This document shows positions 33,410 to 63,335 of a stretch of 64,000 bases of DNA, in pieces. The number at the start of each line of letters is the position of its first letter. Position 1 is the stretch's first letter. This stretch comes from Mobula hypostoma (taxonomy: Eukaryota): contig NC_086108.1 in the NCBI RefSeq assembly GCF_963921235.1, forward strand, positions 5,146,001-5,210,000, written 5' to 3'. The translations under genes and the position numbers were made by a program. The notes beneath the pieces are model-generated. The model was not told where the DNA came from and searched no databases. It saw nothing but the letters and a program-made list of their open reading frames with translations.

Positions 33410-33976
33410 AGGTATTGAACATAGGGCCTTACGGCACAGCACAATACTGGCACCACAATGTTTAGCCGACCTTTTAATCTACACTATCACCTTTTAATCT
33501 ACACTATAATCACTATGACCCTTCCTTCCCACAAGGCCCTCCATTTTTACTTCTTCATTTGCCTATCTAAGAGTCTCTTAAATGTCCCTGATGAATCTGT
33601 CTCCAGCACCATCCTTGGCAGTAAGTTCCAAGCATTGACCACTTTCTGTGTAAGATGTTTACCTCTGACATCCCCCCCCCCCACCATACTTTCCTCCAAT
33701 CTTCTTAAAATTATGCCCCCTTGTACAGCCATTTCCGCCCTTGGAAAAAGTCTCTGGCTGCCCACCTGAACTGTGCCTCTTATCATTTAGAATGCTTCTA
33801 TAAAGTCACCTCTCATCCTCCTTCACTCCAAAGAGGAAAGCCCGAGCTCACTCAACATGTCCCGATAAGTCACGCTCTCTAATCCAGGCAGCATCCTGGT
33901 AAACCTCCTCTGCACCCTCTCCAGAGCTTCCACATCCTTCCTATAATAATGGACCAGAACTGAACACAATATTCCA
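33410..33976 (-). mobile_element. 5'-truncated CR1 LINE 3' fragment
   Basis: ORF 33547..33786(-) ...QRLFPRAEM...VVNAWNLLP...GTFKRLLDRQM is the CR1 ORF2 C-terminus. It matches the CR1 at 36318..36956. Confidence 0.9.
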
Positions 33977-34693
33977 GCATCCAGTTACAAAATAAAAAGC
34001 AGAATATTTCATTCCATAAAAATCTAAGGTTATAAATGAGTCAGTGCTTGGGTCTGTTAATGCCTTGGGGAAGGAACATGAAGCAGCTAGTGTTTAAACA
34101 GCTCTAATCCGTCGGTCCCAGGACTGGGATTTACGAATCACTCCAGTAACTCAGCTCCGACAGGCTGCTCTGGTGACCAACGGTTCCAGTCTTCCAGATT
34201 CGTGACTTCCTGTGGCCAGGACACTGACTTTTCTCATTTGTTTAGAGGTACAGCACAGTAACACACCCTTCTGGCTCGACAAGCCCGCGCTGCCCAATTC
34301 AACGTTCAAAGTACGTTTATTGTCAAAGTATGTGTACCTTATACAACCTTGAGATTCCTCTCCTAACAGGCAGCCATGTAACAACGAAACCCAACAGAGC
34401 CCATTAAAACAAAAGACCATCTAACGCTCAATGTGCAGAGAAAGAGAGACAAATCATGCAAACAGTAAAAGTAAGCTGAAGTTTACAGAAGTGAGTCCAC
34501 AGCCATCCCTGCAGCCCATCCAGGAGCCTGTTAGTTGCAGGGCACAGCTTCAGTTCAGCACAGTGACGAGTAGACCTCACTGAGCAGCAAGCTGAACCAG
34601 CCCGTCCCTCACCTCTGGCCCCGATACCCTAACCCCTCCAATCCGGCCTGCCGCTTAAAACCTCCCAATCTCAGGTCATTCCTTGTTCTCAGG
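33845..34693 (-). repeat. Left arm of a long-range inverted duplication (partner 62489-63335)
   Basis: Near-identical reverse complement. ORFs 34151..34420(-) and 62762..63031(+) differ at only 3 of 89 residues. Confidence 0.97.
34298..34693 (-). mobile_element. Truncated non-autonomous retroposon; its 3' tail resembles those at 41185 and 49250
   Basis: Shared tail TTCAAAGTA(C)..TTTATT(G/A)TCAAA...TACAACC(T/C)TGAGATT at about 34305, 41195 and 49256. Confidence 0.65.
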
Positions 34694-48518: not shown

Positions 48519-49736
48519 AAAACAATATTGTGTTTAAAAGTAAGTTTTCAAAACAAGTTGGAAACAGTAAATTAAGTAGAGTAGGAACGACTATAAAAAC
48601 ACTGCTACTCCATCAACAGCCAGTAGGTTTCTTCACTATATCTCAATAAATAAAATAGATCAATAAAACACCAGTATCTGATGTGGTTGCACACATAGGA
48701 ATGTGTGAATCTCTCTGGCATGGTATGCCCTACAACATTCCTCCCTTGCCTCCTTGTCTCAGACAAGGTTGCTGTATTAATAGATTTGCAATACTTGCTT
48801 ACTTTTGTGTGAAATGGAGACATTTAGAGTCAGTGATTTGCTGTCAGCTGGGGGGGGGCATTTGATTCTGCTTTGCTTGACTTGACACTTCCAATTGATT
48901 TTTGTCTCTTCTGATGACAGCTCTGTCTTATGTTTTGCAAAAAAAGTTCATTAGCTATTGAGACTGCTGTTCATGCAGTGAGAAATGGTTGACTGTTGTG
49001 CTGAGGTGGTGTTATCATTACAGAGGACCTGTCCTGGGCCCAACACGTAAGCATGGCAATGTCTCTACTTCCTTAGGAGTTTGTGAAGATTCGGCATGAT
49101 TCTGCATCACTTCTATAGATGTGTAGTTGATTCCAGGGGTATCTCTTGCTGCAGGGAGCACATTTTATGCGTTGTTGTTGAAAACCTGTGGCCCAGCATT
49201 ATGGACAGAATCGATAAAAGATGACCAGTTTTGTACTGTATTTCTGTTATCAGAGATTCAAGGTACATTTATTATCAAAGAATATATACAACCCTGAGAT
49301 TCCTCTTCCCACAGACAGTCACGAAACGATGAAACACTATGGAACCCATTCAAGAAAAGCATCAAACACCCAAGGCGTAAAAAAAGAACAAATCACACAA
49401 ACGGCAAATACATATGAGCAAAAAATACAGAAAATTGAACATCAAACCACAGAGTAACTGAAACAGTCTGGGACTGTTCAGTTCAGTTCAGTTCAGTTCA
49501 ATTTGGCGCGGTGTTGTTCGTTGACTGCAGGCCACAAAAAGTGGCAGGTCGCAAAAAAAAGATCAAATCGCACAAATGCCATGAAAAAAGATGAGCAAGT
49601 AACACAGAATAGGAAACACAAAGACATCGAAAGAGCCCAGGCACGAGGAATTCTGCAGATGCTGGAAATTCAAGCAACACACATCAAAGTTGCTAGTGAA
49701 CGCAGCAGGCCAGGCAGCATCTCTAGGAAGAGGTAC

Positions 49737-49772
49737 AGTCGACGTTTCAGGCCGAGACCCTTCGTCAGGACT
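49737..49772 (-). ncRNA. Minimal type-I hammerhead ribozyme motif
   Basis: Minus strand: AGUC-CUGACGA-AGG GUCUCGG CCU-GAAA-CGUC-GACU. Stem I is AGUC/GACU, stem II is AGG/CCU, and palindromic ACGU replaces helix III. Confidence 0.8.
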
Positions 49773-50117
49773 AATTGAAAGAAGAGATAGTAAGAGATTT
49801 GAAAGTGGGGGGGGGAGGGGGAGATCTAAAATGATAGGAGAAGACAGGAGGGGGAGGGATGGAGCCAAGAGCTGGACAGGTCTCTCTTTCTTTTTTCTCC
49901 CTCTGTCCCTCTCACTATACCCCTTGCCCATCCTCTGGGGTTCCCCCTCCCCCTTTTTCTTCTCCCTGGGCCTCCTGTCCCATGATCCTCTCATATCCCT
50001 TTTGCCAATCACCTGTCCAGCTCTTGGCTCCACCCCTCCCCCTCCTGTCTTCTCCTTCATTTTGGATCTCCCCCTCCCCTCCCACTTTCAAATCTCTTAC
50101 TAACTCTTCCTTCAGTT

Positions 50118-50153
50118 AGTCCTGATGAAGGGTCTCAGCCCGAAACGTCGACT
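50118..50153 (+). ncRNA. Minimal type-I hammerhead ribozyme motif
   Basis: AGUC-CUGAUGA-AGGG UCUCAG CCC-GAAA-CGUC-GACU. Predicted cleavage is after GUC (50149). Confidence 0.78.
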
Positions 50154-50976
50154 GTACCTCTTCCTAGAGATGCTGCCTGGCCTGCTGTGTTCACCAGCAA
50201 CTTTGATGTGTGTGGCTTGAAAGAGTCCAGGCATATTCAGTTCAGTTCAATCCAGTCTCTTGCTAACTGCAGACTACAGACCTAGTCTATCCCGAACAAA
50301 ATTAAACAAAAAAAGAAGCGACCAGAAAGCAGAAACACATCATAACATGAACTACAGAGTCCAATCCACAAACTGCATCGATGAAAACTTGTTCAAGCCC
50401 CTGGACTCCAGCACAATCCTTCGGCAGCATTAAGCGAGAACGAGAGAGAGAGAGAGAGCGTTCACACTCAGGCACCTTCCTTTAGCAGCAATGAGTGAGA
50501 CAGAGAGATAGAGATACTGGTCACACGTCGACACCTTCCTCCGGGAGCAGCAAGCAAAGGGGAGAGAGGGAGAGAGAGAAACCGCTCACACGCAGGTAGA
50601 AGGGGCCTGTCCTCCGCTCTTGTCCTCTTCGATTTCAATCTTCCTCAATGCTTCAATCAGCGGGACCGGCAAGAAATGGAGTTGATCATGGGCGCGCACC
50701 CCGTCTCCAGCCTTCTTAGCCTCAAAGTCGCATGCTTTGTTCGAAACCCCGTCAAACTCCCTCAGAGACAGCAAATCACTAGGTCGCTCAATCAGCCCAA
50801 AATCACACCACCAAAATGTAGCTCATAAGCTCCAACAGGAGCAGAACCACAGCTGAAAGAAAAATGAAATAAAACAAGTGAAACAAGTAAAAGAAATTTC
50901 AGGAACCATTGTTCACTGGTGTCATCTTCTTCCAGAAGATGATATCCTCTTCCAGAAGATGATCAGAGATATTCGG

Positions 50977-51290
50977 ACCATAAGACATAAGAGCAAAATT
51001 AGGCCATTCAGCCCATCGAGTCTGCTCCACCACTCCATCCTGGCTGATATATTTTCCCTCTCAGCCTCATTCTCCTGCCTTCTGCCCGTAACCTTTGATG
51101 CCCTGACTGATTAAGGACCTTTTGAACTCCGCTTTAAATGTACCCAATGACCTGAGGCAATGAATTCCACAGATTCACCACCCTCAGGCTAAGAAAATTA
51201 CTCCTCACCTCTGTTCTAAAGGGTGTGCCTACTGGTCCTAGACTCCCCCACTGCAGGAAACATGCTCCCCACATCCCACATCCACTCTAT
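50977..51290 (-). mobile_element. CR1 3' end fragment
   Basis: CATAAGACATAAGAGCA..ATTAGGCCATTCAGCCC is the reverse complement of the CR1 3' UTR type seen at 40530-40609. Confidence 0.8.
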
Positions 51291-51359
51291 CTTGTTTGAT
51301 ATGAGTTCCTGTGCCAGCCAAACAGCTGCCTCTCAAAATTCATTCTTGCCTTGTTTAGA

Positions 51360-54290
51360 GCAACACACACAAAATACCGGAGGAACTCGGCAGGTCAGAG
51401 AGCGTCTGTGGAGAGGAATAAACATTTGACGTTTTTGAACCGAGACCCTTCATCAGGACTTGAGAAAAAGGGGGTAGAAGCCAGAATAAGAAGGTGGTCG
51501 AAAGGGAGGGGGGAGGAGTACAAGGAGGCAGGTGATAGGTGAGACCAGGTGAGGGGGAAGATGGGTGGGTGGGGCATGGTGTGAAGCTGGGAGTCGATAG
51601 GTGAAAAAGGTAAAGGGCTGAAGAAGGAATCTGATAGGAGGTGGCAGTGGACTATGGGAGGAAGAGGGGAACTAGAGAGAGCGATGGGCTGGTGAGAAGA
51701 GAAAGGGGTGTGAAACTACTGGAAGTTAGAGAGATTGGTGTTCATGCCATCTAGTTGGAGGCTACCCAGATACAATGTGAGATGTTGCTCCTCCAACCTG
51801 AGGGTGGCCTTGTCATCACCATAGACGTGTTAGAGTGGGAGCGGGAAGTAGAATTAAAATGGATGGCCTCTAGGGAAGCCTGCCACTTGTGGCGATGGAG
51901 CAAAAGTGCTCAACAAGGCAGTCTCCCAATCTACGTTGGGTCTCATCGATGTAGAAGTGGTCGCACTGGGAGCACTGGATACAGTAGATGACCCCGACAG
52001 ACTCGCAGGTGAAGAGTCGCCTCACCTGGAAGGAACATTTGGGACCCTGAGTGTGGGTGAGGGAGGAGGTGAATGGGCAGGTGTAGCATGTCTGTCACTT
52101 GCAGGGAGATTAGTGGGGAGGAACAAGTGGACAAAGAAATCACAGAGGAAGTAATCCCTGTGGAAAGCGGAGAGTGAGGGGTGGGGTGGGAGGGAAAAAT
52201 GTGTTTGATGGTAGGATCCCATTGAAGATGGCAGAAGCTATGAAGAATGATGCACAGGTTTGTGGTAAGGACAAGGACAATTCTATCTCTGTTATGGTGG
52301 CAGGAAGATGGAGTGAGGGTGGATGTCTGGGAAATGGAGGAGATGTGGGTGATGGCAGCTTCAGTGGTGGAGGAAGGGAAACCCCGTTCTTTGAAGAAGA
52401 TGAACATCTATGATGCCTTGGAAAGCCTCATGCATTGGAGATGAAGGAACTGAGAAAAGAAATGGGATTTTTACAAGAGGCAGGGTAGGAAGAGGTATAG
52501 TCAAGATAGCTGTGGAAATTGGTAGGTTTAGAAAAGATACTGGTAGACAACTTGTCTCCAGAGATGGAGGCAGAGAGATTGACAAAAGGACCAAGTGAAT
52601 TTAAGGCCAGGGAGAAAGCTGGGGGAAATGTTGGTGAAATTGATGGGTGCATGAAGCAGCACCAATGCAGACGTCAGTGTAACAGAGGAAAAGTTGGTGA
52701 GCCTCACCAGGGAAGGCTTGCAAGGCTTATTCTACATAGCCAATGAAAAGGCAGGCATAGCTGGGCCCATTGATTGCCCATGGCCACCCCTTGAATGTGG
52801 GAGGAGACGAAAGAGAAATTATTGAGGGTGAGGATCACTCCTGCCAGATGGACGAGGGTGGTGATAGAGGGTGGTTGCATCTGTTTAGAAAAAAAGCAGA
52901 GAGCTTTAAGGCCTTCCTGATGGGGGATAGAAGTATATAGGGACTGGACATCCATGGTGAAAATGAGGCAGTCAGGACTAGGGAATTGAAGAGATCACAA
53001 GTATGTGAAGTGTCACTGTCACCGTCTGGTCCGTGAAGCCCGCATTCCGGTTCACGGTCCGGTCTGTGGATTTCGTATTCCGGCTATTCCTTTTATCCCT
53101 TGTTCCATTGGGCGCCTTAATTGAGGCGCCTGATTCTCGTTTCGGGCTGGACCGTTCTGTAATAAGAGGGTGATGGAAGTGGACCCAAATGCAAGACACA
53201 GTCACTGAAGTACTAGGAGCTGGACTATGCTTATTAAGAATGCTAGGGAAGCCAAGGAGTGAGGACAAAGTGATAACACGAAGGTAGACGAAGAATGACA
53301 CACCGGGAATCCTGGACTTCGACTTGGGACGAGAACTTGACAAGGGAACTCAGGTCATGACTCGGGACTCAGGTCTTGGCAGGGACTCTGTATCTGGGTC
53401 TAGACTTGGCTCTTGACTAGAACTAGGACTTGGCTTGGACTGGACTCGGACTAGGCTTGGACTTGACTCTTGGATTGGACTAGGCTCAGACTGGACTTAG
53501 ACACAGGACACGGAACACTGAGCCGGGGCTCCTCCTTGGACACGGGACATGAAGAGACAGTTCCCAACTCAGAGTAGCGGCGAAACGGCTGGACTGTCCT
53601 CGGCAGTAACCTCATCAGTAACTTCGTTGGTAACTTCGTCTCCACTGGGTAGGTCTGGCCGTTTTGCTGCTACCCTGAGTGGGGAATTGACTCTTCGTGT
53701 TCTCATCTCCACTGAGTAGGACCGGCCAGTTCGCAGCTAATCTTGAATTGGGAACTGTCTCTTCATGTCCTGTGTCCAAGGAGGAGCCCCGGCTCAGTGT
53801 TCCGTGTCCTGTGTCTAAGTCCAGAATGAGCCTAGTCCAAGTCAAGAGTCAAGTCCAAGCCTAGTCCGAGTTAAGTCTAAGCCAAGTCTAGACCCAGATA
53901 CCGAGTCCCTGCCAAGACCTGAGTCCCGAGTCATGACCTGAGTTCTCTGTCAAGTTCTCGTCCCAAGTCCAAGTCCAGGTTTTCCGGTTTGTCTCTCTTC
54001 GTCTACCTTCGTGTTATCACTTTGTCCTTGCTCCTTGGCTTCCCTAGCATTCTTAATAAACATAGTCCAGTTCCTAGTACTTCAGTGACTGTGTCTTGCA
54101 TTTGGGTCCACTTCCATCACCCCCGTATGACAGTCACAGATGTCAGTGGGAAGGGACTGAAGCAAGGGGGACAAAATGGAGACAAGATATGCAGGCACAA
54201 TCAGTAGGACAGGAGCATGCAGAAACAATGGGCCTACCCAGACAGTCAGAGGTTTGTGGATCTTGGGTAGGAGGTAGTGTGGTGTAAGAG
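51360..54290 (-). mobile_element. Decayed Penelope-like element (RT + GIY-YIG endonuclease + terminal repeat)
   Basis: Minus-strand YLLPKIHKP (~54260), MDVQSLYTSIPHQEG...LTLNNFSF...GVAMG (52704..52955), FFKERGFP, and FTCESVGVIYCIQCSQCDHFYIDETQRRLGDCLVEH (~51905-52015). A degenerate hammerhead lies at 51424-51460. Confidence 0.92.
53017..54132. mobile_element. Solo-LTR-derived insertion with a long internal inverted repeat
   Basis: TGTCA...TGACA termini and a 5-bp TSD GTCAC (53012-53016 / 54133-54137). Arms at about 53158-53570 and 53743-54132. Confidence 0.88.
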
Positions 54291-54309
54291 AACTATGAGG
54301 TGATAGCAG

Positions 54310-54715
54310 TCTCTCTCTCACGCTCTCTCTCTCTGTCTTGTTCCTTCCCTCTCTATTGTCCATCCCCTTCCTCTCTATCTCACTGTGTCCCTTTGTCTCT
54401 CCGTTTCTCTTTCTCTCTCTCCCTCTCTCCCTCCCATTCTGTCTGTATAGTTATCTGTCTATCTCTTTCTCTCTGTCTTATTCCTTCCTCCTCCATCGTC
54501 CCTTCCGTCCCCGTCTCATTTTTATATCTCTCCCTGTTCTCTATCCATCTGTCTGTCATTGTCTCTCTTTCTCCCTCTTGTTCCTTCCCCCTCTATAGTC
54601 CCATCCCCCCATCTCCCTTGCTCGTTCCTTCCCCCACCGTCCTATCCCCCTCTCTCTTTCTTTTCCTTTTCCCTCTATCATTACTTTCCCCCCCCCCTCT
54701 TATTCTGCCCCCGCA
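54310..54715 (+). repeat. CT-rich low-complexity tract
   Basis: About 400 bp of degenerate (CT)n. Confidence 0.9.
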
Positions 54716-54719
54716 CCCA

Positions 54720-55575
54720 TTGTGCGTGGCTCTGGGAGTCGCACCACAAGAAGGATCTGGAGGCTTTTGAAGCTTGGAGAGTGTACAGAAGAGATGCTGG
54801 CTGGATTAAAGGGTATCATCTTTAAAGAGAAACTTGGGTTTTCTCTGGAACAGCAGTGGCTGAACGGAGACCTGATGGAAGTTTATACAATTACGAGGGA
54901 CTCACATAGAGTTGACGGTCAGGATCCTTTCCCCAGGTAGAAATGTTCATTTTATAGAGTGCAGAATACACCCTTCCAGCCATTCGAGTCGACTGCTCAG
55001 CAACCCCAATTTAACCTTAACCCAATCACAGGAAAATTTAAAATCACCAATTAAACTACTAACTGGTATGTCTTTGGACTGTGGGAGGAAACCCACACAT
55101 TCCACAGGGACATGGGATTCCCAATCTTTTTATGCCGACTGATACCATTAAGCAAGGAGCCCAGGCTGGGAACCCCTGCACGGGGAGGGCATAAAGATTC
55201 CTCACAGATGACGTCAGATTTGAACTTCGAACTCCGACGCCTCGAGCCCTACTAGCATCACAGCGACCGCCATGCTACCGTGGCACTGACAGGGCAGTGC
55301 TTTAAGGTGAGGAGGGAAGGTTTAAAGGAGAGGTGCAGGGCAAGTTTTTCCACCCAGAGGGTGGTGAGTGACTGGAACATCCTATGAAGGTTAGTCATCG
55401 GAACAGATATGACAGGGATGTTGAAGAGACTTTCAGATTAGCACACAAATATATGGGGAATGGAGAAAGATGGATTGCATGCAGGCAGAAGGATTAGTAC
55501 ATTTTGGTGTCATGTTTGGCACAGATGTCATGGATCAGACAGCCTGTTCCTGTGCTGTGCTGTTGTACGTTCTAT
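54720..55575 (+). mobile_element. Old CR1 3' fragment interrupted by an antisense SINE (~54950-55285)
   Basis: KLGFSLEQQWLNGDLMEVY...DGQDPFPR, resuming with TTTAAGGTGAG...CACCCAGAGGGTGGTGAGTG. SINE core ATGTCTTTGGACTGTGGGAGGAAACC. Confidence 0.75.
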
Positions 55576-55597
55576 ATTCTCTCTCTATCTCTCACTC

Positions 55598-55631
<34 letters not shown>

Positions 55632-55805
55632 TGTCTGATTTCCTCCTCCCTCTTTCTCTCTACCCTCTCTTCCCTAGTCTCTCCATTTCTCTCTCTCTCC
55701 TCCTACCTGTCTCTCTCTCCCCTTCTCCATCTCCCCCCGCTCTCTCTCTCTCCCCTTGTCTCTTTTTCTCTCCCGCCTCTCTTTCTGTCTCCCGTTCTGG
55801 TTTCT
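55575..55805 (+). repeat. (CT)n/(CA)n low-complexity tract
   Basis: Visible directly in the sequence. Confidence 0.9.
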
Positions 55806-55818
55806 CCTTCCACCTCAC

Positions 55819-55973
55819 CAGTAGCTTTGTGTCCCTCAGTGGAATTAGCTGGTTTTTCAGACTGCTTGAAGCTTCTGTTGGGCAAATTGTGGATGAAATG
55901 AAGACCCACCTCAGTGCCTTGCTGTCATCTGAAACTGAGGTATCCAGGAGGCACATCTCCAAACTGAGATACC
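55819..55973 (-). other. Candidate 155-nt spliced exon of an unknown transcript
   Basis: Minus strand: CTGAC-TTGTTTTTCTGCTTCAG|GG acceptor and CTG|GTGAGG donor. One frame is open throughout (YLSLEMCLLDTSV...PLRDTKLL). No homology recognised. Confidence 0.3.
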
Positions 55974-56459
55974 CTGAAGCAGAAAAACAAGTCAGACCCT
56001 AGTTATGCACTCACCTCTGATACTTCTGACTGATGCATTAATCTCCTGTAGTTTCTGGTGAGTACTTAACTTTCTGAGGACCTGCTTCAGTTTACCCGGT
56101 CAGATTTGAAACTCTGAAACAGGCAGACTAATTTACCAAGCTGATGATTCATGAAGAAAATAAATCCAATTTTGTTGAGCTTTGAAATAGTTTCACCAGC
56201 CATTGTCCATTCACATTCACATTATTCAAATTCCTGACAACCCTTGATCACTTGCTTTAATTTTTCCAGATTCAAATGTTCCCTGCTTCTCTGGGATCCA
56301 TAAAAATCCTGTCAACCATCAATCATTAGGCTCCTGAACCAAAGGGGATAACTTTACTCAATTACATTCACCCCATCACTGAATTGTTCCTGTTCCGGCA
56401 GATTTTGGAGATACAACATAGCAAATATTAATTCAACACCAACCAGCCTTCAGATCTGA

Positions 56460-56672
56460 GCACAAACAAGAGAAAATCTGTAGATGCTGTAAATCCAAGC
56501 AACACACACAAAATGCTGGAGGAACTCAGCAGGCCAGGCAGCATCTATAGAAAAAAGGTACAGTCAACATTTCGGGCCAACTCAGTCCTGCCAAAGGGTT
56601 TCGGCCCAAAACATGGACTGTACATTTTTCCATGGATGCTGCCTGAGTTCCTCAAGCATTTTGTGCGTGTTG
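56460..56672. mobile_element. Short palindromic PLE-derived element
   Basis: Inverted arms AGCAACACACACAAAATGCTGGAGGAACTCAG / CTGAGTTCCTCAAGCATTTTGTGCGTGTTGCT. TSD CTTCAGATCTGA at 56448-56459 and 56673-56684. Confidence 0.88.
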
Positions 56673-57084
56673 CTTCAGATCTGAATATGGATTGTAGATT
56701 GAATTTAAAACACAGCTTGGAACAGTAAATTGCAGACTAGGAAATACCCTATTAACTGATATATGTCTGCATATGCATGAACGCAATTGACACCCACTTT
56801 GCATGAACACAACCCAGAGATGGCAGCACCTGGAGTAAGTTGCAGACCAGGAGACATCTAAGTGACTGAGATGTCTGCATATGCATGAATGCAATCAACT
56901 CCCCAGTGCATGAATACGACTCAGAGATCATAGTAATTAACACTTATTTTGGGTGTGTTGATGGGAAGTCCCAGGAATTTGAAAATTACATGTAACTCTG
57001 AAGACCTTGATATTTTTTCTTATTAATTTATTATGCTTATTTATTTTTTCTTTATTTTGGTATATATAATAATATAGAAACATA

Positions 57085-57460
57085 TAAAATTATGAAAAGG
57101 ATAGATAAGATAGAGGCAGGACAGTTGTTTCCACTGGTAGGTGAGACTAGAGCTTGGGGACATAGCCTCAAGATTTGGGGGAGCAGATTTAGGATGGAGA
57201 TGAGGAGGAACTATTTTTCCCAGAGAGTGGAGAATCTGTGGAATTCTCTGCCTAATGAAGCAGTGGATGCTACCTCAGTAAATATATTTAAGACAAGGTT
57301 GGATAGATTTTTGCATAGTAGGGGAATTAAGGGTTGTGGGGAAAAGGCAGGTAGGTGGAGATGAGTCCATGGTCAGATCAGCCATGATCTTATTGAACGG
57401 CAGAGCAGGCTCGACGGGCCAGATGGCCGACTCCTGCTCCTATTTCTAATGTTCTTCTGT
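57085..57460 (+). mobile_element. CR1 3' end fragment
   Basis: ORF 57092..57364 LFPLVGETRAWGHSLKI...FSQRVENLWNSLP...FKTRLDRFL, followed by the CR1 3' UTR. Confidence 0.92.
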
Positions 57461-57602
57461 CTTCCCATGCTCTCTTTTTGCTACTACCATCAGGCAGGAG
57501 GTACAGGAGCCTCAGGGTCCTCAACAACAGGTTCAGGAACAGTTACTATCCTAACAACTATCAGGCTGCTGAACCAGCATGGATAACTTCACTCACCTCA
57601 AC

Positions 57603-58345
57603 TGTTAGGTAACAGGCAACAATGAATATCAATTGAGGCAGGTTATATAAAAACAACCAAACATTTATTAAACACGGATAAACAATGAAAAAAACAAACG
57701 AAAACCTTAACCAGAAGTTAATCGCTAATGCAGCCGTTCAACAAATCGTCACTCGGCACTAGTTCTTAACGTGTTAAATGCGAAAACAGTTCTTAAAGTG
57801 GTGAAGTCAGATATAGTTATTAAAATGGTAAATTCGAAAGTCCAACAGATTTATACGTTCAATTGGGGGAGACTTCTCTGGAGAAGGATTCCTTCATAGA
57901 CGCGACTTTCCTGCTGGTTCTGTCCAAAGGATTCACGATGCCGGAAATAAACAGTTTAAAACAACTGACCTTAAGTTTTTCTAGAGAGCAAATCCTGCAT
58001 GAACTCCTTGCTCTTTTGGCAAGAGTTATCTTCGATGCAGGTCACTACTCCTTCAATGAAGACTCAATAAGGTCGATCCTTTGTTAAAGTGCCGAACGAT
58101 ACCAACTCCTCTCAATCCTTTGGGTCCTGTACTTCGATAAGTCTTTACTCTCCCGTACCACTGCTGGAATAAGGTACATCAACACATCTAGCAAAAATTG
58201 CCAGTCCAGCACTATTGTACCTTGCAACAGAACGTAACAACAGTTTTAAAAATGAAACTGCGTCATAAAAAACAAATACGCAGCAGAAACGGAGACACAG
58301 TACATTCTAGCTGGAAATCTAAAAACTAAAAATCGAGATGGACAC
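57603..58345 (-). mobile_element. Probable LTR-like insertion
   Basis: Starts abruptly with TGTTAG inside a Rex1-like tail and has TTTATT (minus-strand polyA-type signal) near that end. No TSD was found. Confidence 0.4.
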
Positions 58346-58369
58346 TACGGAGGTTCTGGCGCAGGCAAA

Positions 58370-58680
58370 CACAAAGCAGGTGCAAGCCTTTTTAGAAGTG
58401 TGGTTCTCTTCTGATAACTCCGTAAACAAAATATCGGAATAGATACCATCTATCAACCCTAAGAGCCAAAGAAACCTGAGCCAATAGAATTCAAAGGTCA
58501 CCTGAAGGGGGCAGCCAATCAGGACTAAGACAAGTGAATGGTGGGGTGGGGGTGGGCTATATAAATGCGAGCACTTCCAGAGAGAAACACCAACAACTGC
58601 ATTCTGAGGATGTCTCCTTGATCGGTGATGAACTGTCCGTAAGCTAATTGCCAAGCTCAGCGCACACCACAACATCAGTC
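58370..58680 (+). mobile_element. 3' end of a second Penelope-like family with a degenerate hammerhead
   Basis: FLEVWFSSDNSVNK...DTIYQP resembles a PLE endonuclease C-terminus. CTGAGGA-TGTCTCC TTGATC GGTGAT-GAACTGTC at 58604-58637. Confidence 0.6.
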
Positions 58681-58941
58681 TCCTCATTCTCACGGTGAAA
58701 CTCATCGGCCAATCAAAACAATAGTACGTGCAGCGAGCGTAACTCGGTGCTTGATGCTGGCCCAAGTGCAGAGGGAGAAACAAGGACACGGAATGAACAA
58801 TTCACTGAGCTTTCATGAGAACTGTACGGACTGAGAGGAAAATAACAAACACTAAGGCCAACAAGACTGCTAACTAAAACTCTCAAACACTACAGCTCGG
58901 GACAGTGCTCCTTTACAGTGTTAATCTAAACTGAAATCTTC

Positions 58942-59120
58942 ACAAACAAGACAAAATCTGCAGATGCTGGAAATGCTGGAGGAACTCAGCAGGCCAGGCA
59001 GCATCTGTGGAAAAACATACAGGAGTCCTGCCAAAGGGTTCCAGCCCGGAAGGTCGACTGTATTTTTTTTTCCATAGATGCTGCCTGGTCTGCTGAGTTC
59101 CTCTAGCATGTTGTGTGTGT
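58942..59120. mobile_element. Short palindromic PLE-derived element
   Basis: Same family as 56460. TSD TAAACT(GA/AT)AATCTTC at 58927-58941 and 59121-59135. Confidence 0.88.
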
Positions 59121-59400
59121 TAAACTATAATCTTCTTTCCTGGAACATGGACTAAGGGATGTCCATTTAGAACTGAGATGAGGTTCACACTCACCTTCTC
59201 AAGGGTCACTTAGGGACAGTTGTTTGTTGGTTGTTTGTTCATCAGTCTTTGTTTGTGTATAGTTTTCCATAAGTTCTATTGCAATTCTTTATTTTCCTTT
59301 AAGTGCCTGCAAGAAAATGAATCTCAGCAGTAGATGGTGACATATACAAAGTGTGAAAATAAATTTACTTGGAACTTCACTTTCTCTATTTTACACAAAT

Positions 59401-59450
59401 ATCCCTCAGTGGGATTTGAACCCACAGCTCTCTGTCTCAGAGCACTGAGC
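59401..59450 (-). other. tRNA-like/SINE head fragment (Pol III B-box)
   Basis: Minus strand GTGGGTTCAAATCCCAC forms a T-arm hairpin. There is no full cloverleaf. Confidence 0.55.
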
Positions 59451-59838
59451 ATGTTCTGTGGATGCAGGCTGCTCATTATTCCCGTTTCCCAGTTCGGACT
59501 TCCACCTGCGGTACTGTGTGGAGCGCAGTCTTTCACTCCCCCTGGGTGTGTGTTCAAACCCACAGATCAGTCGGGTCGGGCTGGATTCCGGTTGGGTTGA
59601 GTTGTTCTCTGATCTTGACAATTTAGTTGCAAAGGTTTCACCGCCATGCAAGGAGGCATTGTTGGTGTGCTGTTCGATTGTGGTGTGTCCTCCGAATGCT
59701 TGGCCGTTTTATACTTTTCAAATGGTTGATTGGTCGTCATTTCAGAAACTCAGTTGTGATGTGGGGAGGAAATCTCGTTGCTGATTGGCTGTGTGGTGAA
59801 CTTTGTGCATTGTTGTCAGCATGTCTGTTTGCAGGATT

Positions 59839-60033
59839 ACAATGCTGGAGGAACTCAGCAGGCCAAGCAGTACCTATGGATAAAAAGTACAGTCAATGTT
59901 TCAGGCTGAAATCCTGCAGAAGGGTTTTGGCTCAAAATATCGACTGTACCTTTTTCCTGCCTGGCCTGCTGAGTTCCTCAGCATTTTGTGTGTGTTGCTC
60001 TGGATTTCCAGCATCTGCAGATTTTCTCTTGTT
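59839..60033. mobile_element. Short palindromic PLE-derived element, opposite orientation
   Basis: Same family. TSD TCTGTTT(G/A)CAGGATT at 59824-59838 and 60034-60048. Confidence 0.88.
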
Positions 60034-60309
60034 TCTGTTTACAGGATTGTTCACGGAAAACCACGCTTCTGGGAATTCTCTTGATTGCTGTGTGTTCCCT
60101 TATGTCATGACTGATGCCCAGTCGAATTTGTACCCCTCTCAATCTTCATGGGGAGAGATTACAGAGAGTCAGTCATGATGCTTAATGGTAGCCAGTTGAT
60201 GTTCATGGATCTGTGGGGATAGTTTTCTCCCAGTCTGGTTTGGTTCTTTTCACCTCTCCCTTGGTAACTGCTAACTGGTTGATTATTGTCACATGTACAG
60301 TGGAATAGC

Positions 60310-61204: not shown

Positions 61205-61865
61205 TCCCATTCCAATATTGATGACGTTCCAATGTCCGACACATTCCAATGTTGGTTCTGTTCCAAAGTCCAATCCTTTCTAATGTTGGACCCATTCTAA
61301 TGTCACATCTCAGCGGCCTGTGCGATCCATTCCAGTGTCAGTCCCACTCCAATGTCGATCCCGTTCCAATGTCTGACCCGTTTCAATGTCCGACCCATTC
61401 CAATATCCAATACATTCCAATATCTGACCCATTCCAATGTTGATCCCATTCTAATGTTGGTTCTGTTCCAATGTCTGACCCATTCCAATGTCGGTCCTAT
61501 TCCAATGTCATATCTCAGCGGCCTGAAGAACATCGAACCCATTCCAATGTCCAATCCCTTCTAATGTCTGAACCATTCCAATGTCCAACCTGTTCCAATA
61601 TCGGTCCCATTAAAATGTCTGATCCATTCCAATGTCGATTCCCATTCCAATGTCGATTCCCATTCCAATATCAATCCTGTTCCATTGTCGGTTCCATTCC
61701 AATGTGTGATCTGTTCCGATGTCCGACCCATTCTAACTTTGGACCCATTCCAATGTTAGACTTGTTCCAACGTCAGATCTGTTCAAATGCTGGACCCATT
61801 CCAATGTTGGATCTCATTTGCCTGAGGGACCCGTTCCAAAGTCAGACCTGTTCCAATGCTGGACT
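61205..61865 (+). repeat. Degenerate 17-18 bp minisatellite, unit ~CCCATTCCAATGTCGATT
   Basis: About 35 diverged units with a CCATTCCAATG core. Confidence 0.92.
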
Positions 61866-62488: not shown

Positions 62489-63335
62489 CCTGAGAACAAG
62501 GAATGACCTGAGATTGGGAGGTTTTAAGCGGCAGGCCGGATTGGAGGGGTTAGGGTATCGGGGCCAGAGGTGAGGGACGGGCTGGTTCAACTTGCTGCTC
62601 AGTGAGGTCTACTCGTCACTGTGCTGAACTGAAGCTGTGCCCTGCAACTAACAGGCTCCTGGATGGGCTGCAGGGATGGCTGTGGACTCACTTCTGTAAA
62701 CTTCAGCTTACTTTTACTGTTTGCATGATTTGTCTCTCTTTCTCTGCACATTGAGCGTTAGATGGTCTTTTGTTTTAATGGGCTCTGTTGGGTTTCGTTG
62801 TTACATGGCTGCCTGTTAGGAGAGGAATCTCAAGGTTGTATAAGGTACACATACTTTGACAATAAACGTACTTTGAACGTTGAATTGGGCAGCCCGGGCT
62901 TGTCGAGCCAGAAGGGTGTGTTACTGTGCTGTACCTCTAAACAAATGAGAAAAGTCAGTGTCCTGGCCACAGGAAGTCACGATGCTGGAAGACTGGAACC
63001 GTTGGTCACCAGAGCAGCCTGTCGGAGCTGAGTTACTGGAGTGATTCGTAAATCCCAGTCCCGGGACCGATGGATTAGAGCTGTTTAAACACCAGCTGCT
63101 TCATGTTCCTTCCCCAAGGCATTAACAGACCCAAGCACTGACTCATTTATAACCTTAGATTTTTATGGAATGAAATATTCTGCTTTTATTTTGTAACTGG
63201 ATGCTGGAATATTGTGTTCAGTTCTGGTCCATTATTGTAGGAAGGATATGGAAGGTCTGGAGAGGGTGCAGAGGAGGTTTACCAGGATGCTGCCTGGATT
63301 AGAGAGCGTGTCTTATCAGGACAGGTGAGCTCGAG
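62489..63335 (+). repeat. Right arm of the inverted duplication (partner 33845-34693)
   Basis: Begins CCTGAGAACAAGGAATGACCTGAG, the exact reverse complement of 34670-34693. Confidence 0.97.

Follow-up and report, generated by a model that had tools for sequence, protein, structure and literature searches.

A 64,000-nt stretch of the Mobula hypostoma genome (NC_086108.1, positions 5,146,001 to 5,210,000 of the forward strand; hereafter 'the window') holds four short fold-back elements close to a long element with reverse transcriptase (RT) and GIY-YIG endonuclease coding sequence, which raises the question of whether the short elements propagate as a family in their own right or arise one at a time as insertion products of a Penelope-like element (PLE). 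A sequence-only reading of the window had described them as palindromic, hammerhead-bearing PLE derivatives that move as a unit, with the long element as their helper.

Architecture and target site duplications

Four fold-back elements without ORFs lie where that reading placed them, at 49644-50218 (A), 56460-56672 (B), 58942-59120 (C) and 59839-60033 (D), and their whole-element RNA folding energy was matched by 0/15 shuffles (A) and 0/60 shuffles (B, C and D), with z values of -8 to -32. Each consists of two PLE 3′ ends placed head to head:

49644..49881, minus strand: tailed arm of A, a 238-nt PLE 3′ end (element sense minus) with a 28-nt tail, the pseudo-LTR (pLTR) and 109 nt of sequence on the upstream side of hammerhead helix I
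49882..50218, plus strand: tail-less arm of A, a 337-nt PLE 3′ end, the first 129 nt being an unpaired spacer
56460..56579, minus strand: tailed short arm of B, with a 37-40 nt tail, ending within hammerhead helix II
56580..56672, plus strand: tail-less long arm of B, beginning 0-3 nt before helix I (56584), hammerhead core broken
58942..59022, minus strand: tailed short arm of C, with a 20-nt internal deletion, ending 2 nt before the hammerhead cleavage position
59023..59120, plus strand: tail-less long arm of C, beginning at helix I (59024), core broken
59839..59911, minus strand: tail-less short arm of D, its outer end falling some 12 nt short of the usual position, ending in the helix II loop
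59912..60033, plus strand: tailed long arm of D, beginning 2 nt inside helix I, core broken, with a tail of about 34 nt

All four elements thus consist of an inverted, 5′-truncated PLE copy with a one-sided tail, a tail of 28-40 nt being present in exactly one arm (4/4). The description 'palindromic' is apt as regards self-complementarity but not symmetry, given this extra tail and the unequal arm lengths, the longer arm being tail-less in A, B and C and tailed in D. The arms of any one element belong to the same subfamily (4/4; 196/208 positions are identical between the arms of A), an observation compatible with one RNA, with self-copying or with two RNAs alike. A represents a subfamily distinct from B-D, which have the same linker type in common. 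A shared terminus, with variants, had also been proposed; only the tailed arm of B has the 42-nt terminus unchanged, the sequence having diverged elsewhere, with 3-14 ungapped mismatches in the six other ends listed by the scan, from which the tailed-arm ends of A and D were absent owing to indels. The tail-less outer ends of A, B, C and the long element (4/5) coincide within 6 nt.

Each fold-back element is abutted by its own, different direct repeat of 12-15 bp (4/4), as had been claimed, and these target site duplications (TSDs) vary in both length and sequence:

49629..49643 and 50219..50233, no strand: TSD of A, 15 bp, 1 mismatch
56448..56459 and 56673..56684, no strand: TSD of B, 12 bp, exact
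58927..58941 and 59121..59135, no strand: TSD of C, 15 bp, 2 mismatches
59824..59838 and 60034..60048, no strand: TSD of D, 15 bp, 1 mismatch

Amongst 2000 random window pairs used as a control, 26 reached the lowest score of A-D and 7 the highest. Such TSDs bear directly on whether the elements are DNA-transposon MITEs moved by a transposase, which they resemble in being short, self-complementary and without an ORF. There is next to no chance of this, since the TSDs are 12-15 bp long and all different, refuting the idea in 4/4 copies, the tips, with a tail on one side only, do not mirror each other as inverted repeats, and the terminus is that of an RT/GIY-YIG element. In this respect the sequence-only reading, which took them for products of PLE target-primed reverse transcription, stands on the long differing TSDs, the asymmetric ends with a PLE tail and the RT/GIY-YIG-linked terminus.

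The RT/GIY-YIG element and the hammerhead motifs

The long element (P) comprises two features:

51359..51460, minus strand: 3′ pLTR of P, a tail-less end with a broken hammerhead core, linker subfamily different from A-D
51734..54324, minus strand: coding region of P (RT, CX4CxxC linker and GIY-YIG), 5′-truncated, with frameshifts and stops, of Neptune/Nematis type

An insertion at 53017-54133 splits the coding region, and no TSD, tail or inverted arm was found for P. Pieces of its RT match PLE-derived proteins of rays at 50-68% and can be aligned with P0010 and P0003 (Pfam RVT_1), and its endonuclease piece is 73% identical to P0013, a protein with VIY-YIGET and the downstream motifs; direct Pfam scans of seven window fragments gave no significant domain. 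The linker is CX4CxxC in P and CX3CxxC in P0013. A CX2-5CxxC linker upstream of GIY-YIG is given for Neptune/Nematis and not for Penelope/Poseidon in the available text of PMC8557442, and the CX4CxxC linker of P led us to drop Poseidon in favour of Neptune/Nematis as its clade. The fold-back terminus is thereby tied to a predicted PLE-type RT with a C-terminal GIY-YIG endonuclease, the arrangement of endonuclease-bearing (EN+) PLEs, and P itself reads as a dead Neptune-like PLE of another subfamily than A-D.

The proposal that the same terminus caps P holds for a related terminus (at 51359, 42/49 nt identical to B), but not for the same subfamily. With P dead and only ~70-85% identical to A-D, the proposed retrozyme-like pairing of parasite and helper finds no support; P was ruled out as helper, being broken and of another pLTR subfamily, and no intact helper element was found within the window.

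The description 'hammerhead-bearing' is correct for A, where a strict motif scan finds an intact minimal motif in each arm, the two lying on opposite strands, but not for B, C and D, which have broken cores:

49737..49772, minus strand: intact minimal type-I hammerhead motif, tailed arm of A
50118..50153, plus strand: intact minimal type-I hammerhead motif, tail-less arm of A

B, C and D retain one hammerhead-homologous segment apiece, sharing a C at core position 6 in addition to private core-breaking changes, and the hammerhead of P is likewise broken. A6C is a natural hammerhead variant with altered metal preference (PMC7151607). Rfam reported no hammerhead at E<=1, its sole match being a chance miRNA-hairpin in C, far under the cut-off, and isolated sense arms folded no better than shuffles.

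Minimal hammerheads are on record from Xena, Poseidon and Neptune elements of fish (PMC4209133, Cervera and De la Peña, 2014), and those of metazoan PLE pLTRs, as far as that account describes them, are similarly of type I with a 4-bp helix I, a palindromic vestigial helix III and one additional base separating positions 9 and 10.1; from these, B, C and D differ by the common C at position 6 and the private core-breaking changes. Dual motifs on opposite strands, as in A, occur 100-700 bp apart in Schistosoma (PMC4209133). Only 1/8 inner arm ends falls within 3 nt of the ribozyme cut, which ruled out ribozyme cleavage as the source of the junctions, and, with most arm ends away from its cut site, the hammerhead would play a passenger role.

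Animal non-LTR retrozymes (bioRxiv 10.64898/2026.07.22.740005; PMC7229834) resemble A-D in being non-coding and pLTR-related and in having type-I hammerhead sequence. As characterized in the available text, retrozymes are head-to-tail tandem units with at least two intact same-strand ribozymes, whereas in A-D the arms face head to head, each insertion stands singly, and a strand holds no more than one motif, mostly a broken one. This orientation of the arms tells against A-D being non-LTR retrozymes, as does the finding that nowhere in the window do two intact motifs lie on the same strand.

Inner junctions and the proposed propagation as a unit

The inner junctions of the four window copies all differ (0/6 pairs alike), with microhomology of at most 3 nt in 4/4. 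A private junction in every copy is what the sequence-only reading had named as the refutation of propagation as a unit, and its derivation series from 575 to 180 bp finds no support, for the same reason and because A belongs to another subfamily than B-D.

The junction of B was examined in assembled contigs of four sequencing runs (X1, X5, X9 and X17), none recorded as RNA; nor was there an RNA run among the 24 listed, which has no bearing on expression. Contigs with the terminus exceeded 10^5 per large run, and three runs were flagged as saturated, X17 being unsaturated. Depth at 56580 was 261 (X1), 535 (X5), 52 (X9) and 0 (X17); in the same order of runs it was 15,583, 47,036, 6,682 and 2,926 at the position 6 nt to the left, and at the position 13 nt to the right it was 97,584, 341,478, 75,847 and 6,281, so that depth across this one junction was <2% of flanking depth in 4/4 runs, with saturated counting, which again tells against a non-autonomous family moving as a unit. 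No piece among the 32 listed spanned the junction. A recurring junction may nonetheless exist elsewhere in the genome. On the tail-less side, the top three loose-end positions in the three large runs (56497, 56498 and 56501) were the same places.

The 15 of 448 joints listed had at most 10 contigs per run, and amongst these neither a centre joint near 56584 (the unsaturated X17 included) nor an empty site, i.e. a joint skipping B, was found; two of the listed joints lie at 56584-56585. Longer-centre junctions were spread across 328 entries, 12 of which were listed. Opposite-strand joints at 56548-56621 and 56554-56614 were rejected as single arms switching between the arms of B over a variable A-run. 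Amongst the best-supported joints, a tailed end was joined directly to a tail-less end in 7+7, 4+7, 3+3 and 0+1 contigs, the form that tandem or circular units would be expected to give.

These few end-to-end joins, together with a breakpoint near the same point in all three short copies, are what would be left by a palindromic master that is transcribed whole and then retrotransposed with PLE proteins supplied in trans, one-sided deletions having afterwards altered a shared hairpin centre differently in B, C and D; non-autonomous PLEs and trans-mobilization by pLTRs are on record (PMC8557442, PMC3846280, in the sections available). We consider such a master quite improbable, given that the window copies have no common junction, that no centre joint near 56584 appears among the listed joints, that the RNA 5′ end would have to lie exactly at the antisense inner start site, that the unrelated subfamily A has the same architecture with its own junction, and that the hammerheads of B-D are broken with no intact helper in the window.

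A probable two-ended insertion and a possible helix I boundary

The two-armed anatomy, the TSDs, the one-sided tail, the differing junctions and the PLE identity of the terminus are direct observations, and from them we think it probable that A-D are separate, strongly 5′-truncated inserts of a very abundant Neptune-type PLE, the fold-back arising anew each time. By analogy with in vitro data on another PLE, we infer two-ended target-primed reverse transcription, in which the GIY-YIG endonuclease would nick both target strands 12-15 bp apart and each nick would prime reverse transcription on the 3′ pLTR of the element, the tailed arm starting from an outer site and the tail-less arm from an inner one. 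Both cDNAs would end prematurely and be joined head to head, gap filling would generate the TSD, and a fold-back would thus be produced de novo at every insertion.

In the published accounts, so far as available, an adjoining inverted 5′-truncated copy with a one-sided 30-40 bp tail is the PLE norm and the origin of tandem and inverted PLE structures is termed undefined (PMC8557442), rotifer inserts have inverted pLTRs, 8-10 bp TSDs and a one-sided tail (PMC3846280), and a purified PLE protein, predicted to be dimeric, cuts and extends both strands from two start sites that delimit the tail, ribozyme cleavage being dispensable (PMC11167929). The median length of new PLE insertions can be 128 bp (PMC9977147).

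One alternative would use a single cDNA, in which the end of the first arm pairs with itself through a short inverted match within the hammerhead region and is extended on its own sequence to give the second arm. Arms of one subfamily in 4/4 elements, the abundance of 4-6 nt inverted matches in the hammerhead region and a junction in C that misses by only 3 nt the position expected from helix I pairing are consistent with this, but it does not account for why, in A, B and C, the second arm should stop at the inner start site, and it fits poorly with junction microhomology of at most 3 nt in 4/4, making it highly improbable.

A different question is posed by the long-arm ends of B, C and D, which fall at -3 to +2 of hammerhead helix I (3/3). 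Clustering within ~6 nt has a chance probability of 0.9-1.7% for a 100-nt range and 3-6% for 50 nt, in a post hoc comparison with n=3. The same point in A is preceded by a putative signal:

50098..50115, plus strand: branch-point-like heptamer, pyrimidine tract and CAG just before helix I of A, 3′ splice-acceptor-like

This pattern occurs six times in the 62,000 nt scanned and is degraded in the other arm of A; an acceptor-like context is found at the helix I point in A, P and B. There is here a hint that the template of B, C and D may have had a fixed 5′ end at helix I. That such a splice-acceptor-like boundary existed in any form, whether in a short non-autonomous RNA made into a hairpin at each insertion, in paired 'strong-stop' cDNAs of an autonomous mRNA or in a palindromic unit with tandem or circular intermediates (for which the rare tailed/tail-less joins would speak), is doubtful.

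The version that keeps the two-ended chemistry and a fold-back arising anew, with either a SINE- or retrozyme-like pLTR-monomer RNA or an autonomous mRNA whose 5′ end or splice acceptor follows internal initiation in the 5′ pLTR, is in our view unlikely. It draws on the clustered arm ends with their shared core variant, on the acceptor-like contexts, on the D. virilis Penelope intron, whose end coincides with the 5′ border of helix I (PMC4209133), on internal initiation demonstrated in vitro (PMC11167929), both as given in the available text, on a Hypanus sabinus gene model (P0012, protein only) spanning head-to-tail pLTR monomers that each end just beyond the helix I point, and on the two joints at 56584-56585. 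However, the cluster was spotted post hoc in three copies, the bases upstream of the helix I point differ among B, C and D, leaving no common first exon, an alignment start at 56584 is expected regardless because the preceding bases of B are private, and the arms of A extend 109 and 236 nt beyond this point.

Counter to separate truncated insertions, random truncation of a long RNA leaves the helix I clustering and the shared core C and linker of B, C and D unexplained, differing junctions could also come from later one-sided central deletions of one palindromic master, and direct tailed/tail-less joins rank among the best-supported contig joints.

Compared with EN+ PLE insertions (Craig et al., 2021, PMC8557442; Arkhipova et al., 2013, PMC3846280), as portrayed in the text available, A-D share outward 3′ ends, a tail at one end, a TSD of variable length and heavy 5′ truncation; they differ in that both arms are cut to 70-340 nt with no ORF left and that the TSDs are 12-15 bp rather than the 8-10 bp of the rotifer examples (PMC3846280). 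The Anolis Poseidon element PAc studied in vitro (Frangieh et al., 2024, PMC11167929) agrees with the two-ended model in its two RT start sites delimiting the tail, an AC-rich cDNA start, cutting and extension of both strands and a dispensable hammerhead, although PAc is of Poseidon type whereas the element here has a Neptune/Nematis linker, and the PAc data in that account concern start sites and strand cutting whereas complete two-armed inserts are seen here.

Pattern scans for further copies returned 0 loci in viral, metagenome and prokaryote genome collections, as expected of an animal repeat. Fold-back junctions of other copies, sought via spurious ORFs, gave 0 matches and then one with tandem monomers and no fold-back. 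Searches of open papers (without supplements), by title and the start of the abstract, revealed nothing relevant on these elements in sharks and rays or on twin priming in PLEs.

A-D neatly illustrate a way of inserting already known for PLEs, and they carry a warning, since two-armed PLE inserts resemble MITEs and would be misassigned by repeat classifiers. With the terminus at very high copy number in the genome, counts of TSDs, outer ends and inner junctions could pit two-ended priming against self-copying. A fixed inner boundary, if upheld, would mark the template 5′ end or a short parasite RNA, and the very numerous copies in ray genomes would then be a base-resolution record of the RNA 5′ end and of two-ended PLE priming.

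Fold-back elements of Penelope-like origin

Four short fold-back elements, A to D, lie in the window:

Fold-back elements with arm lengths (tailed/tail-less) and inner ends (tailed, then tail-less), the latter on a scale where hammerhead helix I starts at 0 and the cut site is +31/+32.
49644-50218: element A; arms 238/337 nt; inner ends -109 and -236
56460-56672: element B; arms 120/93 nt; inner ends +19 and -3 to 0
58942-59120: element C; arms 81/98 nt; inner ends +34 and about 0
59839-60033: element D; arms about 122/73 nt; inner ends +2 and +15

As the sequence-only reading had proposed, cross-comparison within the window confirmed that the four elements match one another and share their terminus with the end of P, a long Penelope-like element (PLE), whilst none of the shuffled sequences (15 for A and 60 for each of the other three) equalled them in RNA folding. 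All are directly adjoined by direct repeats of their own, which differ between the elements (A and D, 15 bp with 1 mismatch; B, 12 bp exact; C, 15 bp with 2 mismatches), again as claimed; the lowest of the four repeat scores was reached by 26 of 2000 random window pairs, the highest by 7. These 12-15 bp target site duplications (TSDs) have no motif in common, and none is TA or 8 bp long; a MITE, to which we give practically no probability, was excluded.

All four elements consist of two outward-facing PLE 3' ends joined head to head, with an extra tail of 28-40 nt on one arm and none on the other. In A, B, C and P the tail-less end occupies nearly the same position, with a spread of no more than 6 nt, and in D it is about 12 nt shorter. 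The 3' ends, the one-sided tail and the match to P uphold a PLE origin. The arms of A are identical to each other at 196 of 208 positions and carry diagnostic bases of their own, B, C and D make up a second subfamily, and the pseudo-LTR (pLTR) of P, with a different linker and about 70-85% identity, a third. The supposed size series from 575 to 180 bp is not supported, since it mixes subfamilies.

The long element and the hammerheads

The domains of P and the intact hammerheads found by a strict motif scan are:

54324 to about 52180, minus strand: RT motifs of P
to 51734, minus strand: GIY-YIG domain of P
50118-50153, plus strand: intact hammerhead of A
49772-49737, minus strand: intact hammerhead of A

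The closest named protein matches to P belong to the rays and skates Mobula, Hypanus and Amblyraja, so that the host is most likely a batoid; one Hypanus gene model has an intact GIY-YIG domain with 73% identity to that of P. Because a CX4CxxC linker precedes the endonuclease, the linker criterion of PMC8557442, which divides Neptune/Nematis from Penelope/Poseidon, places P putatively with the former. P has no tail, inverted arm or TSD, and its flanks hold no direct repeat of the quality seen in A-D (best score 7). P had been cast as helper in a parasite/helper pair; we rejected this, P being a dead relative of another subfamily whose coding region lies in three frames, contains stops and is split by a 1117-bp insertion. 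That insertion (53017-54133, in the RT) has TG...CA ends and a 5-bp target duplication (53012-53016/54134-54138), LTR-like ends that contrast with its fold-back body, in which short-period repeats accompany a palindrome spanning about 1 kb (53157-54133; 82% overall).

On both strands of the window, the strict scan found intact minimal type-I hammerheads only in the two arms of A; a third match, in D, was rejected as chance because its middle does not pair. B, C and D each retain one hammerhead-homologous segment, in which position 6 of the core is cytosine and other core positions are changed as well, and P has lost G12 and helix I, so that 'hammerhead-bearing' stands for A and fails for B, C and D. 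The copies in B, C and D are not expected to cleave. Since A6C is already known as a natural variant (PMC7151607), the ancestor of the B/C/D subfamily may have been active. An Rfam search reported no hammerhead, and isolated sense arms folded no better than shuffles.

Junctions and the terminus in sequencing runs

The inner ends lie at differing positions, and therefore all four junctions differ; in A, B and C it is the tail-less arm that reaches further inward, in D the tailed arm. Junction microhomology is at most 3 nt, and of the 8 inner ends a single one lies close to the hammerhead cut site. In B, C and D (n=3) the longer arm stops no more than about 6 nt from helix I, a post hoc clustering with a simulated chance of 0.9-1.7% over 100 nt and 3-6% over 50 nt. 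Directly before helix I, a candidate branch-point-like heptamer, pyrimidine tract and AG form a splice-acceptor-like context, clearest in the tail-less arm of A (50098-50119), and P and B have a pyrimidine-AG context likewise; the intron of D. virilis Penelope ends at the same hammerhead position (PMC4209133), and tandem pLTR monomers in the Hypanus gene model P0012 (protein only) stop just past it. Together these suggest a fixed template end at helix I for B, C and D, which we consider unlikely; that the shortest copies reflect either a fixed template boundary or a unit intermediate is slightly less doubtful.

Contigs from 4 of 24 listed runs were aligned at 80% likeness to B, the only element compared, and its flanks. 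The matches (164,796 of 29.4 million; 157,546 of 34.2 million; 117,899 of 20.9 million; 16,104 of 1.7 million) make the PLE terminus extremely abundant, as contig counts and not copy number; three of the runs were flagged as saturated. Summed depth in the four runs was 261, 535, 52 and 0 at the B junction (56580), 15,583, 47,036, 6,682 and 2,926 at 56574, and 97,584, 341,478, 75,847 and 6,281 at 56593. The junction was crossed by none of the 32 longest pieces listed (379,220 more lie beyond these); repeats interrupt contigs, and no listed piece bridged the locus of B itself. Any of the best 15 of 448 joints had at most 10 contigs per run, longer-centre junctions being tabulated separately (best 12 of 328 rows). 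On the outer side, the three large runs had their best-supported loose ends at 56497, 56498 and 56501, with agreement on the tail in about half. The depth drop and these positions show that the B junction is private and that many ends fall at the inner start site. With four different junctions, one of them private, a separate family propagating as a unit is not supported. The unit model of the first reading, taken as a palindromic master with central deletions afterwards, is improbable.

Among the top joints, tailed ends joined directly to tail-less ends (56461 to 56497/56498, opposite strands) were seen in each of the four runs in small numbers of contigs (7+7, 4+7, 3+3 and 0+1), about 0.01% of matched contigs. 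Tandem or circular fold-back units would give such joins, as would nested insertions, and they count against the two-ended priming that we favour below.

In run X17, one contig (depth 880.8) joins 56554 back to 56471, repeating the pLTR end head to tail; a tandem array or a circular RNA could account for it, X17 being only guessed to be RNA. A 57-nt tandem unit from the pLTR end (56541 back to 56501), whose 16 intervening letters are identical in X1 and X5, is a possible PLE-born minisatellite. Elsewhere, the window holds a minisatellite array (1 to about 32500, about 800 copies of 38-39 bp), a degenerate tandem repeat of 17-bp period (61208-61844) and an inverted pair about 28 kb apart (33855-34693 and 62489-63326; 704 nt at 99% and 143 nt at 96%), either one repeat present in two very young copies or an inverted duplication.

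Insertion mechanism and known families

The observed anatomy is probably best explained by two-ended priming at two start sites. The endonuclease would nick both target strands 12-15 bp apart, each nick would prime cDNA from the pLTR, one per start site, and both cDNAs would stop early and then be joined. This chemistry is inferred from the purified PLE protein of Frangieh et al. (PMC11167929), which cut and extended both strands, began cDNA at two sites bounding the genomic tail, could dispense with ribozyme cleavage and was predicted to be dimeric. Self-copying of a single cDNA would not explain why the second arm has a fixed outer end, and is very unlikely.

It is normal for PLE inserts to be very short (median 128 bp; PMC9977147), and an adjacent inverted 5'-truncated copy with a one-sided tail of 30-40 bp is typical of PLEs (PMC8557442, PMC8969392), with TSD-flanked examples in a rotifer (PMC3846280); paired minimal hammerheads on opposite strands, 100-700 bp apart, were noted previously (PMC4209133). 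A search confined to open-access literature found no description of short two-armed inserts in rays. Retrozymes are in print as non-autonomous PLE derivatives (bioRxiv 10.64898/2026.07.22.740005), described there as head-to-tail tandems with intact ribozymes; A-D differ from these, and their supposed retrozyme-like nature is not supported. Seen in protein sequence only, the Hypanus sabinus gene model P0012 (residues about 146-310) reads through some four pLTR monomers arranged head to tail, with the frame shifting between them; every monomer spans the hammerhead, which makes this stingray sequence a tandem array of retrozyme-like form. Whilst a separate unit-propagating family is unsupported, A-D are a real feature of this ray's DNA, and their PLE origin is right.
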